Shown here: positions 26,561-32,978 of the stretch, piece by piece
Position numbering within the stretch: the stretch's first letter is position 1
How the letters are laid out: every line of letters starts with the position of its first letter
Source of the DNA: Prevotella sp.
GTDB taxonomy: Bacteria; Bacteroidota; Bacteroidia; Bacteroidales; Bacteroidaceae
NCBI RefSeq assembly: GCF_036570325.1
Contig: NZ_DATCYK010000028.1
Coordinates: 11,526-75,525, forward strand
Direction: 5' to 3'
Length of the DNA: 64,000 bases
Position numbers and translations under genes: made by a program
The notes under the pieces: generated by a model
What the model saw: the letters and a program-made list of their open reading frames with translations, nothing else
Databases searched by the model: none
Told to the model about the DNA's origin: nothing

Positions 26561-28801
26561 ATGACAAAAGGCAAAAAGGCCGGCAAACGACTGACCAAAA
26601 AACAATTGGCTGAGCGGATAGAGGAATTTTTCTCCGCCCTACCCGGAAAAACATTAAGTTTCAAAGAAATATTCAGAGCCCTCAAGCTCAACACCCACCC
26701 GCTCAAGATGCAGGCCATAGACATCATGGAGGAAATGGCGTGGGACGACTTTCTGGCCAAGGTTTCGGAAAATTCATACCGCCTCAACACCAATGGCCAA
26801 ATACAGGAAGGCACATTCCAGCGCAAGGCCAACGGCAAGAACTCCGTCATACCCGTGGATAGCGAGAAGCCCATCTTCGTGTCAGAGCGCAACTCCATGG
26901 GCGCCCTCACCGGCGACAAGGTAAAATTCTCGTTCATGGCTCGCCGCGTCAACCACATAAAGGAAGCGCAAGTCATCGAGATACTCGAGCGCAAGAAAGA
27001 CACCTTCGTGGGCCGCCTGAAGGTAGACAAGGACATGGCCTACCTCATACCCCAGTCCGACGTGCTGGCCCACAACATCATCATACCCCGCCGAAAGATA
27101 AAAGGCGGCAAGACAGACGACAAGGCCGTCGTGCGCGTAACGCAGTGGCCCGACGAGGAACGCAAGAGCCCCATCGGCGAAGTCATCGACATCTTGGGAC
27201 AGACGGGCGACAACGACGTCGAGATGAACACCATCCTCGCCCAATACGGACTGCCCTATAAATACCCCCAAGCCGTGGAGGAAGCCGCCAAGAAGATAAC
27301 CGGCGAGGTAACGAAGAAAGACCTTGACGAGCGCGAGGACTTCCGCCAAGTGTTCACCTGCACCATCGATCCCCGCGACGCCAAGGACTTCGACGACGCC
27401 CTCTCCATCCGCCTGCTCGACGCCCAAGGCCATCCCCTCACCCCGCAGGCCGCCAAGCAAGGCAAGGCAGCCCTCTACGAGGTGGGCGTGCACATAGCCG
27501 ACGTGAGCCACTACGTGACCGAAGGCTCCATCATCGACAAGGAAGCCGTCAAGCGAGCCACCAGCATTTACCTCGTCGACCGCACCATCCCCATGCTGCC
27601 CGAGCACCTCTGCAACTTCGTTTGCTCACTCCGCCCCAACGAGGAGAAGCTCGCCTACAGCGTCATCTTCACCATGGACGCCGACGCCGACATCAAATCA
27701 TCGCGCATAGTCCACACCGTCATCCGCAGCGACCGCCGCTACGCCTACGAGGAAGTACAACAAATCCTTGAGGACAACGGCGTCATCGACGGCACGGGAG
27801 AGCCCGCCCCACCCGCTCCCAAGGGCGGCTACAAGGGTGAGAACGCCCAACTGCTCATCCTCCTCGACCGACTGGCCAAGCAATTGCGTAGCAAACGATT
27901 CAAGAACGGCGCCGTGAAATTCGACCGAGAGGAGCTCCATTTCGACATCGACGAAAAGGGAAAGCCCACCCGCTGCTACTTCAAGAGCTCCAAGGACGCC
28001 AACAAGCTCATCGAGGAATTCATGCTGCTGGCCAACCGCACCGTGGCCGAGACCGTCGGAAAAGTAAAGAAAGGGCGCAAGGCAAAGACCCTTCCCTACC
28101 GCGTTCACGACAATCCCGACCCACAAAAAATGGAGACGCTGCGCCAATTCATCGCCAAATTCGGCTACAAAGTAAAGACCGATGGCACCAAGGGCGCCAT
28201 GGCCAAGAGCATTAACAAGCTCATGGACGACGTCGAAGGCAAGCGCGAGGGCAAAGTAATACAAACCGTGGCGCTCAGGGCCATGATGAAAGCCAAGTAC
28301 ACCACCCACAACATCGGCCACTTCGGGCTGGCCTTCGACTACTACACCCACTTTACCTCCCCCATACGCCGCTACCCCGACACCATCGTCCACCGACTCC
28401 TCACCCGCTACCAGCAAGGAGCGCGCAGCGCCAATGAGAAACATTGCGAGGAACTCTGCGAACATTGCTCCGACATGGAGCTCGTGGCACAGAACGCCGA
28501 GCGCGATTCCATCAAGTACAAGATGGTGGAATTCATGGCCGACAAGCTCGGACAGTCCTTCGACGCCCACATCAGCGGCATTACAAGCTACGGCATTTAC
28601 GCCGAGATCGACGACAACCACTGCGAGGGAATGATTCCCATGCGCGACTTGGATAACGACTACTACGAGTTCGACGAGCGCAACTTCTGCCTCGTGGGTC
28701 GCCGTCATCACCACAAATACCAGCTCGGCGACGCCATCCGCATCAAAGTGGCCAAGGCCAACCTCGAGAAAAAACAGCTCGACTTCGCCCTCGACGAGTA
28801 A
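26561..28801 (+). CDS. rnr: Ribonuclease R
   Basis: TIDPRDAKDFDDALS, GVHIADVSHYV, HFTSPIRRYPD, C-terminal S1 domain; promoter box TATCTTTG at 26461-26468. Confidence 0.96.
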   Translation: MTKGKKAGKRLTKKQLAERIEEFFSALPGKTLSFKEIFRALKLNTHPLKMQAIDIMEEMAWDDFLAKVSENSYRLNTNGQIQEGTFQRKANGKNSVIPVDSEKPIFVSERNSMGALTGDKVKFSFMARRVNHIKEAQVIEILERKKDTFVGRLKVDKDMAYLIPQSDVLAHNIIIPRRKIKGGKTDDKAVVRVTQWPDEERKSPIGEVIDILGQTGDNDVEMNTILAQYGLPYKYPQAVEEAAKKITGEVTKKDLDEREDFRQVFTCTIDPRDAKDFDDALSIRLLDAQGHPLTPQAAKQGKAALYEVGVHIADVSHYVTEGSIIDKEAVKRATSIYLVDRTIPMLPEHLCNFVCSLRPNEEKLAYSVIFTMDADADIKSSRIVHTVIRSDRRYAYEEVQQILEDNGVIDGTGEPAPPAPKGGYKGENAQLLILLDRLAKQLRSKRFKNGAVKFDREELHFDIDEKGKPTRCYFKSSKDANKLIEEFMLLANRTVAETVGKVKKGRKAKTLPYRVHDNPDPQKMETLRQFIAKFGYKVKTDGTKGAMAKSINKLMDDVEGKREGKVIQTVALRAMMKAKYTTHNIGHFGLAFDYYTHFTSPIRRYPDTIVHRLLTRYQQGARSANEKHCEELCEHCSDMELVAQNAERDSIKYKMVEFMADKLGQSFDAHISGITSYGIYAEIDDNHCEGMIPMRDLDNDYYEFDERNFCLVGRRHHHKYQLGDAIRIKVAKANLEKKQLDFALDE

Positions 28802-28877: not shown

Positions 28878-28952
28878 CAAAACAAATCAGCCGCATCTAA
28901 GAGTAGATGCGGCTGATTTGCTGTTTAAATAGCGTAGGGCTACGACTTCCTT
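28878..28952. repeat. Left hairpin direct repeat of the AT-rich island
   Basis: aaacaaatcagccgcatcta-agag-tagatgcggctgatttgctgttta...cgacttcctt. Confidence 0.9.
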
Positions 28953-29289: not shown

Positions 29290-29874
29290 TTAAAACGTCA
29301 ATCTTAATTTTGCATTGACATTGAGATAGGTTCCACCATCATTTTTTAAGTCTTTATGCTTATAAAAAGCCAATTCAGGCGTGACAATAAATTGGAGATT
29401 ACGTGATTTGGTCAAGTTAAGGGCAACATTAACTCCAACCTTGGGAACAATGAAATGAGATGTTGATTTCTCATCCCATCTATGATCATCATGGTCAACA
29501 TAATCTTCAGTTTCCCAACTATAACCAATTCCCACTGTTGGCTCTATCTCAAGAATGCTGTTGGGCATAAAGAGTTCTGACACCTTTGCATGTCCGTTGA
29601 CACCAATAAATCCCAAAACTGCATCGGTCTCACCATATTCATTCTTTTTATGACGTGTTCCCAACTTTCCCTCAACACTCACACCCCATATTGGTGTGAA
29701 ATAACGGCCAAGGCTTAGTCCACCTCCCCAATAAGTCAAGTCATCCCTATCTCCAAGGTCCTGCATCATCACTCCACCAACTTCCACGAAATTCTTTTTT
29801 GATGGAGTTTCCTCTGCATAAACACCGACAACGGCTGTCAAAGCCAAAAATAAAATACTTAAAAACTTCATCAT
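29290..29874 (-). CDS. Outer-membrane beta-barrel protein, paralogue 2
   Basis: signal peptide, alternating beta strands, terminal Phe (KLRLTF). Confidence 0.8.
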   Translation of the reverse strand: MMKFLSILFLALTAVVGVYAEETPSKKNFVEVGGVMMQDLGDRDDLTYWGGGLSLGRYFTPIWGVSVEGKLGTRHKKNEYGETDAVLGFIGVNGHAKVSELFMPNSILEIEPTVGIGYSWETEDYVDHDDHRWDEKSTSHFIVPKVGVNVALNLTKSRNLQFIVTPELAFYKHKDLKNDGGTYLNVNAKLRLTF

Positions 29875-30485
29875 TAAAACTTCAATCTTAATTTTGCATT
29901 GACATTGAGGTTTGTGAAACCATCATTACGAACATCTTTATTCTTATAAAAAGCCAACTCTGGTGTAACAATAAATTGGAGATTACGTGATTTGGTCAAG
30001 TTAAGGGCAACATTAACCCCAACCTTGGGAACAATGAAATGCCATGTCTTATTCTTCTTTACAAGGTTAACTTCCTCATGCATCTCCTCTGTCCATTCAC
30101 TATTTTCATGAATCCAACTATAACCAATTCCCACAGTTGGCTCAATTTCAAGAATGCTGTTGGGCATAAAGAGTTCTGATACCTTAGCATGTCCGTTGAC
30201 ACCAACAAATCCTAAGACACCATCAGCTTTATCCCCTTCATCCTCATAATGACGGAAAACCACTTTTCCCTCAACACTCACGCCCCATATTGGTGTGAAA
30301 TAATGGCCAAGGCTCAGTCCACCTCCCCAATAAGTAAAGTTATCAAACTCTCCAAGGCCCTGCATCATCACACCACCAACCTCAGCGAAATTCTTTTTTG
30401 ATGAAGTTTCTTGTGCATAAACACCAACAACGGCTGTTAAAGCCAAAAATAAAATACTTAAAAACTTTTTCATAATGGTTTTCAT
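29874..30485 (-). CDS. Outer-membrane beta-barrel protein, paralogue 1
   Basis: as above (KLRLKF); TAATG overlap couples it to paralogue 2. Confidence 0.8.
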   Translation of the reverse strand: MKTIMKKFLSILFLALTAVVGVYAQETSSKKNFAEVGGVMMQGLGEFDNFTYWGGGLSLGHYFTPIWGVSVEGKVVFRHYEDEGDKADGVLGFVGVNGHAKVSELFMPNSILEIEPTVGIGYSWIHENSEWTEEMHEEVNLVKKNKTWHFIVPKVGVNVALNLTKSRNLQFIVTPELAFYKNKDVRNDGFTNLNVNAKLRLKF

Positions 30486-30614: not shown

Positions 30615-31103
30615 TTATAAAAAGGTACGAAATGTAAATAAATGGAAAATAATATGCGCACACAGCAACAGACTGTAAAGCGTAAAGCTCATTGACGCAT
30701 AATATAACATTTGGTAAAGCATGGTTTCCTGACTAAGTAATTGGCATGTCATTACCATTAAGATATTAACTATCAATACTATGCAAAGAAAAGTTATCGT
30801 TGCAAAAACTACATTAATAGGCCTCTTTTTATCTTTAACTTTCTTACGTAATCTAACAATTACATCATGTCCTAAACTAAAGAAGATAGCTATACTCGCT
30901 ATTATAAAGCCCAATAGCTCTGACGTAATGTCAAGAGAACTGCCCAGAGACGATAATTTAGCATTTTCAGTAATGGGATTAAGGAAATAAAGAATTACTC
31001 CCACTAACATGCAAACCAAAAATAAAATCCAAGGACAACACTTTAAATTAGAATTAAGATCGTGGATTACGTAACATAATTTTTCATCTTTTATCATATA
31101 CAA
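30615..31103 (-). CDS. Hypothetical membrane protein with about 4 TM helices
   Basis: 162 aa, four hydrophobic stretches, AT-rich codons. Confidence 0.65.
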   Translation of the reverse strand: MYMIKDEKLCYVIHDLNSNLKCCPWILFLVCMLVGVILYFLNPITENAKLSSLGSSLDITSELLGFIIASIAIFFSLGHDVIVRLRKKVKDKKRPINVVFATITFLCIVLIVNILMVMTCQLLSQETMLYQMLYYASMSFTLYSLLLCAHIIFHLFTFRTFL

Positions 31104-31164
31104 AATATATTACTCTACTTCTCCCACATAGAGTTGATTAATAAAGTTAATATATTATAGTATA

Positions 31165-31571
31165 TACGAAAAAGCGTGGGAGACTTACAGTTACCCGTCC
31201 CACGATCTTGAGGTCTTCGCATTACCCGACATAGTTGAACGAGCAACGAGACCCCACGCCGATATGAAAAAGCATTATACACCTATACACCCCATCTTTG
31301 CCATGTCTGCAAATGAGCAGAATGGGCATAACGAGGCTATAGGGCAGAATACATTAATTCACACCCATGGGCATCTACCGTTGCTATGTTCTTGACTATG
31401 TCTGGAAGTTTGCGAAGTTTCAAGATCGTCAAGGACAAAGCGCATGTAAACGCCTTACCATATATAAATAGTCCCCACACCGGCAATTTTGTCTCATCAG
31501 ACGTTTTGCCCTTTCCCTGCACCATTCTGTTAACAGAAGAGGCCATCGGCGTGGAAACTTTTACAAAGATA
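31165..31571 (-). promoter_or_regulatory. Putative long structured 5' leader / attenuator
   Basis: promoter box TATCTTTG at 31564-31571; inverted repeats 31197-31249/31379-31436 and 31254-31263/31545-31554; gcgtggg...cccacgc followed by TTTTT. Confidence 0.55.
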
Positions 31572-31720
31572 AGAATTATATTTATAATAACATGAGTTCT
31601 ACGAATTATAATTGCTGAAACATTTATATGACAGACGGCTTCAGCAAGTTTTTTGATTAAATGACAGAAAAATAGGCAGTTATACCGTCAAAATAAGCAG
31701 TCGTTATTGACTTATGATAC

Positions 31721-31795
31721 AAAAACAAATCAGCCGCATCTATCTTTAGATGCGGCTGACTTGCTGTTTAGGAAGCAAAGGATTGCGACTTCCTT
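31721..31795. repeat. Right hairpin direct repeat of the AT-rich island
   Basis: aaacaaatcagccgcatcta-tctt-tagatgcggctgacttgctgttta...cgacttcctt. Confidence 0.9.
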
Positions 31796-31868
31796 TCTAT
31801 GAATATGGGTTTAATGCTTCTTAAGAAGCCCACTTCCGCGGGGTCATAACAGCCCGGTGGCGGGGGCA

Positions 31869-32978
31869 TTAAGCCTTTTCAAAGGCCTCGGCCTCGGCTT
31901 GGGCGATGATGTCCTCACGGCTCATGCGCTGGGCACTGATGTCGCTCAGGTCGAACTCTTCATCGGCTTGACGGGCCGTGGAGGGCGGAGCGGCCTCTTT
32001 CTCGGCCTTGGCGGCTACCATTTCGTTGCTCGAGCGGTACATGGGTGACCGGCGGCTGCGGCGCGAGTCGTCCTTATATACCGTTTCGCTGAAGGCCGTG
32101 GTGTGCTTCTCCTCTACCTTCGGCTCGGCCGCTTGGCTGATGATGAAGTCTTCCTTCTGCTCGGTGGCGGGCACGTTCTGCACGGGTTCCTCCTCCATCT
32201 TGGTGCGGTTGGCCTTGGCGGCGAAGACGCTGTCGATGAATTGTGGCTCCTTGCGCAGTTTCTCCAAGGTGAGCTTGGCGGCTTTCTGCTGGCTTTCTTT
32301 CTTGCTGTAGCCGGTCCCGGCACAGCCCTTGATACCTTCGAGCACCACACGATAGTTGAAAATGGGACTTCCGTTCTCGTCGGTTTGCTCGTCGACGCTC
32401 TCAAATCCCATTTTCACCCGGTTCTTCTGGCTCCACTCTATGAGCTTGCTCTTGAAGTTGACCTCCTTGTACGCCACCTTGTCTATGTTGATGATTTCCT
32501 TGAGCACACGGTCTCTCATGAAGCGCATGCAGGCGTTGTAGCCGCGGTCCAAGTAGATGGCGCCCACCAAGGCCTCGAAGGCGTTGCCGCCCATGTAGCT
32601 GTTGTGGGACGAGCTTCGGCCGTTGCTCAGTATCAGTCGACTGATACCCATTTCCTTGGCCAGCCGGTTGAGCGTGTCGCGCTGTACCAGTTTGGAGCGT
32701 GTATTGGTGAGAAAACCCTCTCGTTTGCCGGGAAAATGTTGGTAGACGATGTCGCCCACGATGGCGTCGAGGATGGCGTCGCCCAAGAATTCGAGCCGCT
32801 CGTTGTTGACGGGCTTGCCTTTGGCGTTGCGACGCATGACGCTCTTGTGCATCAGGGCCAGCTTGTAGTAGCTGATGTCGTGGGGAAAGAAGCCTATAAT
32901 CTCGTATAAAGACAAATAAAGCTCCTTATCCTTGCGGAAAGGGAGCTTTATTCTATCAATGATGTTACTACTCAGCAT
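31869..32978 (-). CDS. rnc: Ribonuclease III with long acidic C-terminal extension
   Basis: NERLEFLGDAIL, GNAFEALVGAIYLD, dsRBD NFKSKLIEW...GYSKKESQQKAA. Confidence 0.95.
   Translation of the reverse strand: MLSSNIIDRIKLPFRKDKELYLSLYEIIGFFPHDISYYKLALMHKSVMRRNAKGKPVNNERLEFLGDAILDAIVGDIVYQHFPGKREGFLTNTRSKLVQRDTLNRLAKEMGISRLILSNGRSSSHNSYMGGNAFEALVGAIYLDRGYNACMRFMRDRVLKEIINIDKVAYKEVNFKSKLIEWSQKNRVKMGFESVDEQTDENGSPIFNYRVVLEGIKGCAGTGYSKKESQQKAAKLTLEKLRKEPQFIDSVFAAKANRTKMEEEPVQNVPATEQKEDFIISQAAEPKVEEKHTTAFSETVYKDDSRRSRRSPMYRSSNEMVAAKAEKEAAPPSTARQADEEFDLSDISAQRMSREDIIAQAEAEAFEKA

Follow-up and report, generated by a model that had tools for sequence, protein, structure and literature searches.

Gut Bacteroidales vary their surface and phage-defense genes through invertible promoters and NusG-like antiterminators. 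Published work on the capsule loci of Bacteroides reports that UpxY proteins keep transcription from terminating prematurely in the 5′ leaders ahead of upxY (PMC7819879, PMC7315117). We analyzed a stretch of 64,000 nucleotides (nt) from a Prevotella sp. genome (NCBI RefSeq assembly GCF_036570325.1, contig NZ_DATCYK010000028.1, positions 11,526 to 75,525), which we call the window and whose numbering we use throughout, and found in it a leader copy (31161-31571, minus strand, downstream of rnc) that belongs to a family of structured RNAs. A preliminary description of this DNA had proposed an undescribed RNA switch controlling the cargo genes behind it, and comparative analysis supports that proposal through the lack of any Rfam 15 match, two competing folds that co-vary, and a spacer before the cargo that holds no promoter of its own. 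The reading that we prefer, with a probability of roughly 60%, is that a 5′ leader, extending on the minus strand from about 31557 to 31098, precedes the first gene of a small islet and would act as a transcription attenuator initiated by kissing loops.

A BLAST search with window positions 31140-31480 against a sample of 121 genomes of the genus placed the family in 54 of them, often with several copies per genome; the genome of the window has a single copy. Leaders in the family are about 300-400 nt long and share block A (31356-31466) and block B (31161-31268), two conserved stretches of roughly 110 nt apiece whose order and orientation are the same across genomes. Exact matches to a 17-mer of block B were found in over 120 public contigs, which are labeled Prevotella, Bacteroides (B. 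clarus, B. vicugnae), Parabacteroides, Muribaculaceae, Paludibacteraceae, Alistipes putredinis, Barnesiella, and others. A search that tolerated one mismatch detected the 17-mer in 32 of the 401 genomes and in 23 of the 226 genera of a sample that spanned the Bacteroidales, and these counts are underestimates because the window's own copy differs from the 17-mer at two positions. About 140 full-length copies were recovered with nhmmer among the fetched loci. Copies from the same genome share just 60-77% identity, so they are old paralogs and not recent transpositions. The block B motif also lies in twelve IMG/VR contigs. Contigs labeled Oribacterium, Firmicutes, or Anaerovoracaceae (L062, L068, L093, L109) carry the element as well; L062 is 100% identical to a Prevotella-like genus locus, which suggests mis-binned contigs in those assemblies.

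No Rfam 15 model matched window positions 31100-31620 at an E value of ≤10 or six other element-bearing loci at an E value of ≤0.1, and between 28000 and 35000 the sole match at an E value of ≤1 was a weak and unrelated one at 32874-32967; this outcome fits the earlier claim that the element is undescribed. Full-text literature searches with conserved sequence words and on leaders, antitermination, and RNA motifs returned no description of it, and its conserved words were absent from the first 200 of the 408 supplementary files of a human-microbiome structured-RNA catalogue (PMC8040213). The small RNAs FopS and GibS were rejected as matches, being 65-70 nt long and unrelated. The leader family is apparently uncatalogued, with a patchy distribution across gut and rumen Bacteroidales.

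Corrected mutual information, used to rank column pairs in an alignment of 113 non-redundant copies (alignment A2), brought out two folds. The local fold, fold Y, is fully nested and consists of a hairpin called P1, a hairpin in block A, and one long hairpin that abuts a run of U residues. In the window, P1 (AAGGCGU...GCGCUUU) occupies 31437-31456 and is paired in 88.5% of cases over the 113 copies, with three pairs changed on both sides. The block A hairpin (31388-31436) has an outer stem, UGUUCUUGAC/GUCAAGAACA (31428-31436/31388-31396), and an inner stem, GAAA/UUUC (31418-31421/31405-31408), with changes on both sides in nine of nine outer and three of four inner pairs; when block A is folded alone, the outer stem is predicted and the inner stem only partly. 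The long hairpin is built from segments S11 and S18 (GCGUGGG/CCCACGC), segments b and b′ (GUUGCUCGUUC/GGACGAGCAA), and a small apical hairpin, GGGC/GCCU. S11 (UCGGCGUGGGG, 31252-31262) is the 5′ arm of what we call the large terminator hairpin, and its pairing with S18 holds in 96.6% of cases, with six pairs changed on both sides. Segment b (31237-31247) finds its local partner at 31191-31200 (97.8% paired, seven pairs changed on both sides). In the window the apical hairpin of block B reads GGGU/ACCU (31211-31227; 99.8% paired), and the two differences between this copy and the block B consensus amount to one compensatory change from C:G to U:A in that stem. A small terminator hairpin (31174-31204), in which CGUGGGA (31198-31204) pairs across a loop with UCCCACG, uses the same 3′ arm as the large one, S18 (31174-31181). 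Its stability is -11.7 kcal/mol when folded alone, it is paired in 85.6% of cases, and all seven of its pairs have changed on both sides. Fold Y with the large terminator is paired in 92.5% of cells and has 248 double-change cells against 81 ± 7 after shuffling (0 of 500 shuffles as high); with the small terminator, 88.8% of cells are paired and 274 show double changes against 102 ± 8.

The second fold, fold X, is a rod, a duplex of about 35 bp between block A and block B. In the window, 31202-31233 forms the 3′ strand of this long-range duplex and pairs with 31397-31429. The preliminary description had noted that 31379-31436 is complementary to 31197-31249, and this holds, with exact arms at 31420-31429/31202-31211 (10 of 10) and 31395-31405/31225-31235 (10 of 11). 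The helix at alignment columns 65-75/423-432 is paired in 95.5% of cases, both sides have changed in eight of its nine pairs, and a position may show as many as four Watson-Crick pair types; further helices lie at columns 78-86/412-419, 97-105/399-404, and 121-126/375-383. A CCC at columns 136-138 (window 31369-31371) pairs with the GGG of S11 (97.1%), and GCAAC (31380-31384) is the rod partner of segment b. Over the whole rod, 92.0% of cells are paired and 665 show double changes against 211 ± 16 in shuffled alignments (0 of 500), and sliding the partners by one to three columns gave far lower double-change counts. Because the rod occupies the GGG of S11, segment b, and the 5′ arm of the small terminator, no terminator hairpin is possible in fold X.

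The two folds compete for columns 65-66, 74-75, 358-360, 379-383, and 423. Fold X overlaps the large terminator at columns 358-360 and 379-383 and the small one at columns 430-432, and column 74 co-varies with both of its alternative partners, columns 92 and 424. As judged from the alignment, folds X and Y are both conserved, both co-vary, and are mutually exclusive. The competing long-range pairings claimed at the outset are thus borne out by the covariation check, with compensatory changes in both folds beyond those in every shuffle. The best fold of the finished RNA contains the rod in 106 of 113 copies, and nascent block A by itself forms the local hairpin in 67 of 113. For the window, the predicted RNA (31557-31163) has a folding energy of -163.4 kcal/mol, whereas dinucleotide-preserving shuffles give -113.1 ± 5.8 (z = -8.7; 0 of 100 as low), and its best fold includes the long-range A:B duplex. 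Folded separately, block A (-16.9 kcal/mol) and block B with the terminator (-34.0 kcal/mol) each look much like fold Y. From the family-wide predictions we used only counts of helices in best folds, since energies with forced pairs are crude (for the window copy, enforcing all pairs is worse than leaving the fold unconstrained).

Fold Y displays two loops that match each other. The A-loop, CUUCGCA (31411-31417), contains a UUCG motif of the YUNR type and is the putative kissing partner of UGCGAAG (31215-31221) within the B-loop, AAUGCGAAG, on the apical hairpin of block B. In 167 of 171 distinct copies the two 7-mers match by Watson-Crick pairing at all seven positions, and they fall into eight co-varying sequence types, among them CUUCGCA/UGCGAAG, UCUCGCA/UGCGAGA, and UCUGGCA/UGCCAGA. 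A variant B-loop motif searched alone in the genus gave 44 matches in 29 of the 121 genomes, and its reversed control gave 0. Nearly all copies recovered from 30 loci fetched on this variant had the matching A-loop, with 29 UCUCGCA/UGCGAGA pairs. Several loop types coexist within one genome.

The architecture around the folds is that of a leader. The preliminary description had placed a promoter box at 31564-31571, and a Bacteroidetes-type -7 box, TAtcTTTG, is indeed present there on the minus strand, as the only TAnnTTTG box on either strand between 31100 and 31900; transcription would start near 31557. Of 110 copies, 105 have such a box ahead of them, and its median distance to the first aligned position is 56 nt. 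Some 390 nt with no conserved open reading frame (ORF) follow it in the window, and then come the hairpin and UUUUU (31169-31173), a putative intrinsic-terminator U-run that is conserved at the 3′ end of alignment A2 and found in every copy. The stem that had been proposed between GCGUGGG (31253-31259) and CCCACGC (31174-31180) ahead of this U-run, about 70 nt before the ATG at 31097, proved to be conserved and to co-vary, so that a GC-rich co-varying hairpin with its U-run (31169-31180) stands between promoter and gene, and the conserved alternative pairing of fold X excludes it. The first downstream ORF of at least 90 amino acids (aa) is co-oriented in 114 of 125 copies, with a median gap after the U-run of 70 nt (interquartile range, 50-84), and 11 of the 125 have no same-strand gene behind them. 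A promoter box occurs in 4 of 84 spacers, which is the chance level, so the downstream gene would have to be transcribed through the terminator.

The leader carries further boxes and segments. The 5′ box CCACGCCGAU (31545-31554) is, as claimed, a perfect 10-nt complement of 31254-31263 in S11 (UCGGCGUGG); a 5′ box of this kind (CCACGCCGA) is present in about a third of copies, including the window's (38 of 110 with at least 9 nt). A G-box, GGUGUGGGG (31473-31482), pairs with the 3′ arm of the terminator in the best fold of the window RNA, and a rough pattern for GGGNGGG-like boxes finds one in 49 of 110 leaders. The nearly invariant, unpaired GGUAGAUG (31372-31379) lies inside GCAACGGUAGAUGCCC in conserved columns of the alignment. 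A central domain of variable length and sequence (31262-31368; columns ~140-340) supplies the apical hairpins of the rod. Beyond the U-run, the post-terminator box GUGGGAG (31121-31127) is complementary to the 3′ arm of the terminator, and 77 of 111 copies have a box of at least 6 nt with this property, for the most part at a constant spacing behind the U-run.

The genes behind the leaders are heterogeneous accessory genes: BspA-type leucine-rich repeat (LRR) proteins (18 of 109), DUF6175, Big_2, GtrA, and PAP2 proteins, acyltransferases, DNA methylases, 3′-phosphoadenosine 5′-phosphosulfate (PAPS) reductase fusions, a UvrD helicase, and SrfB. An UpxY-like NusG paralog is the first gene behind 2 of ~170 copies, the window's copy not being one of them.

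In the mechanism that we propose, block A would be transcribed first and would fold locally. If block B then also folded locally, S11 would be brought beside S18, the terminator would be complete, and the outcome would be OFF. If instead the B-loop kissed the A-loop, strand exchange would lead to the rod, RNA polymerase would read through, and the outcome would be ON; an exchange that was too slow or blocked would let the terminator form. The decision would be kinetic because the rod is the stable end state. Anything that altered the speed of kissing, of exchange, or of the polymerase could set the outcome, and candidate inputs are a protein such as a NusG paralog, an RNA, a small ligand, and the speed of RNA polymerase itself. 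A specialized NusG paralog is a candidate with a weak link to this leader.

Several points weigh against the attenuator. The small terminator hairpin appears in the predicted minimum-energy fold of only 9 of 113 copies, and termination would have to be kinetic because the terminator is so rare among these folds. Most A:B contacts are made by columns that fold Y leaves unpaired, and the RNA may have a single static fold with loop-loop (pseudoknot) contacts, since strict exclusivity rests on few columns. Alignment A2 was partly ascertained on the exact block B 17-mer, so conservation there is inflated. Where transcription starts, whether it ends at the U-run, and whether it reads through are predictions from sequence. 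Finally, no trans-acting factor was identified, and the heterogeneous cargo gives no hint of a ligand.

We weighed other explanations of the same features. The imperfect inverted repeats, the several copies per genome, the patchy distribution, and the position at the heads of accessory islets would also suit a DNA element, such as the inverted repeat of an invertible switch, a miniature mobile element, or a recombination site. However, G-U pairs outnumber A-C mismatches in the helices by 868 to 248 overall, by 222 to 6 in b:b′, and by 92 to 4 in CCC:GGG; because a DNA inverted repeat has no such asymmetry, the structure acts in the RNA of this strand. The promoter also lies outside the repeats, a recombinase stands beside only 1 of 90 copies, and the window's copy has no BLAST match in phage or plasmid collections. 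This asymmetry and the divergence of same-genome copies led us to reject a DNA-level repeat or mobile element, and the wider class of DNA explanations is very improbable. We consider it more improbable still that the leader is a leader-peptide attenuator or a type I toxin mRNA that depends on a 69-aa upstream ORF. Such an ORF (31337-31546) does cross block A, as the preliminary description said, but its frame is not conserved across the family: no frame is open across block A in more than 28% of copies, insertions and deletions are not in multiples of three, and no start codon is conserved, which leaves the coding reading unsupported. The four small ORFs have no Pfam match, the family holds no conserved small toxin ORF of the kind that had been hinted at, and the plus strand of 31100-31900 has no TAnnTTTG box from which the suggested antisense RNA could start.

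Other readings accept an RNA and give it a different task. A stand-alone, rod-shaped noncoding RNA of ~300-400 nt that acts in trans or sequesters a protein, with the gene behind it as a passenger, would account for the leader's own promoter and terminator, for a ground state that is a long interrupted duplex in nearly all copies, and for the copies that lack a same-strand gene behind. It is unlikely in view of the tightly spaced, co-oriented ORF behind most copies, the promoterless spacer, the conserved post-terminator box that pairs with the 3′ arm of the terminator, and a local fold that co-varies independently of the rod. Only a little less likely, in our judgment, is factor-dependent antitermination, in which the terminator is constitutive, an UpxY-like NusG paralog or other elongation factor is loaded at the leader and takes the polymerase past that terminator, and refolding is secondary. 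The published action of UpxY on capsule-locus leaders, the two copies that precede an UpxY-like gene, and the nearly invariant unpaired segment agree with it, and the genome of the window encodes one UpxY-family protein elsewhere (contig C56). Against this, an upxY-like gene stands behind only ~1% of copies, the leader in front of the genome's own upxY does not resemble this family, only CGGTAG of the ops element is matched, and the conserved exclusive folds and matched loops would be left unexplained. It is distinctly improbable that the leader is mainly a processing, stability, or translation element whose duplex is cut by RNase III or another nuclease so as to set the stability or translation of the downstream mRNA. 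The A:B helices do offer a near-continuous duplex of ~18-19 bp plus extensions, and the post-terminator box could reshape the region upstream of the start codon, but a conserved GC-rich stem with a U-run right behind it has the usual form of an intrinsic terminator. The preliminary description had pointed to rnc as a neighbor, and this hint did not hold up; other copies lie behind unrelated genes, so its presence here is a coincidence. No conserved neighboring regulator was found in the family, as the genes upstream are unrelated housekeeping or island genes.

The islet behind the window's leader is a low-GC region (~28.8-31.8 kb, 30-43% GC) in a genome of ~57% GC. The minus-strand genes acpP, fabF, and rnc point toward it, rnr (RNase R) converges from the opposite side, and rnc is closed by its own hairpin terminator at 31721-31768. 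The first cargo gene (30615-31103 in the ORF list, minus strand) has its likely start at ATG 31097, some 70 nt from the U-run, as is the median in the family; it is predicted to encode a small membrane protein of 160-162 aa, and the product has no significant Pfam match. Two outer-membrane beta-barrel-like genes come next, which are tandem paralogs (29290-29874 and 29874-30485, minus strand), and each holds the same stretch of ~40 nt with a plus-strand TAatTTTG box (29305 and 29889). Two direct copies of a palindromic, terminator-like hairpin bracket the islet (28879-28952 and 31722-31795; 82% identity over 74 nt), one of which closes rnc, and no integrase lies between them. rnr (26561-28801, plus strand) and rnc (31869-32978, minus strand) converge on the islet in this genome only; elsewhere in the genus they are tens of kilobases to megabases apart or on separate contigs. 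The islet thus marks a break in gene order, and other species of the genus offer no adjacent rnr-rnc pair in which an empty site could be defined. As listed, the rnc ORF encodes 369 aa, with the RNase III domains at residues 36-241 and a C-terminal tail of ~125 residues that has no domain match.

Some loci elsewhere in the family add observations of their own. The two UpxY-preceding copies, from two genomes of the genus, have the architecture of a capsule-locus head (L193, 1603-2527; L188, 686-1333). In four viral or prophage contigs of IMG/VR (L161, L167, L169, L163) the leader precedes an 807-aa fusion of PAPS reductase, 4Fe-4S, and DUF4007 domains that resembles DNA phosphorothioation (Ssp/Dnd-type) defense genes, and in another (L168) it precedes a C5 DNA methylase. 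At three loci (L006, L016, L018) the palindrome TCCCTCAATGAGGGA is present two or three times immediately before the TAnnTTTG box of the leader, an arrangement that looks like an operator array for a DNA-binding regulator.

If the attenuator reading is true, this leader would add a third layer of control, in which a portable promoter-plus-leader module gates diverse accessory genes through RNA refolding, and the family would be among the largest and most widespread uncatalogued cis-regulatory RNAs of a medically important order. Through the matched loops the model is open to a clean and direct genetic test in cultured carriers: single mutations should break control and compensatory ones restore it. 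The module could also become a gene-control tool for Bacteroides and Prevotella. A more speculative idea, which we think improbable, is that the co-varying loop pairs are orthogonal addresses read in trans by nascent or terminated leaders or by a dedicated factor, making an RNA network across copies. Such a network, if true, would coordinate surface and anti-phage cassettes or make them mutually exclusive, thereby corresponding, at the RNA level, to the UpxY/UpxZ hierarchy and to invertible promoters.

Several known classes were considered and set aside. A riboswitch controls a coherent set of genes, which is not what stands behind these leaders, where LRR surface proteins, DUF6175, GtrA, acyltransferases, DNA methylases, and PAPS-reductase fusions are mixed. 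A type I toxin-antitoxin mRNA was rejected for want of a conserved open frame and of a plus-strand promoter box in the region searched, and a Bacteroidales invertible DNA switch was rejected on its imperfect arms, the outside promoter, the excess of G-U over A-C, and the scarcity of recombinases. 6S RNA is a rod of ~180 nt with a central bubble; it was rejected since the family has no Rfam 15 match, occurs in several copies, and is always in the leader position. The ops element of the RfaH system (JUMPstart) has a 12-nt consensus, GGCGGTAGnnTG, on the non-template strand. The family consensus AACGGTAGATGC shares only CGGTAG with it, the TG being displaced by one position, and we regard this as a lead only.

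The leader family resembles other described RNAs in part. Like the UpxY-dependent capsule leaders, for which premature termination was reported, it comes from the same bacterial order, stands before operons for surface structures, and has two members that precede upxY-like genes; unlike them, ~99% of its copies have no upxY behind, and the genome's own upxY leader is unrelated in sequence. T-box leaders are also large, with multiple helices, a choice between terminator and antiterminator, and a modular build with variable address helices. However, this family has no specifier loop, no T-box sequence (none in alignment A2), and no Rfam 15 match, and whereas T-box leaders are typical of Firmicutes and of aminoacyl-tRNA genes, it precedes accessory genes. 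The put sites of HK022 and the EAR element of Bacillus eps operons are likewise structured RNAs that head accessory or exopolysaccharide operons and affect termination. Their effect is on RNA polymerase, which once modified disregards terminators located further along; the leader family has a terminator of its own within the conserved element, and the control of that terminator would come from alternative pairing.

In its loops the family recalls CopA/CopT and RNA I/RNA II, where complementary hairpin loops, as with the YUNR-like UUCG here, could nucleate an extended duplex, and in its energetics it recalls hok-type mRNAs, in which a local, kinetically trapped fold competes with a more stable long-range one. 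In contrast to those systems, both loops here lie in one molecule, with no antisense gene, toxin ORF, or plus-strand promoter box within the leader, and the output would be termination rather than translation or replication. The closest likeness is to classical terminator/antiterminator leaders, of the trp type or of riboswitch platforms: the element is in cis and adjacent to the promoter, exclusive helices compete for the 3′ arm before the U-run, and the gene behind would depend on read-through. This family differs from them in being far larger (~300-400 nt), in having whole domains as its alternatives (two hairpins or one rod), in lacking a leader peptide or a recognizable aptamer, and in its heterogeneous cargo, and its refolding is apparently nucleated by an intramolecular loop-loop contact.

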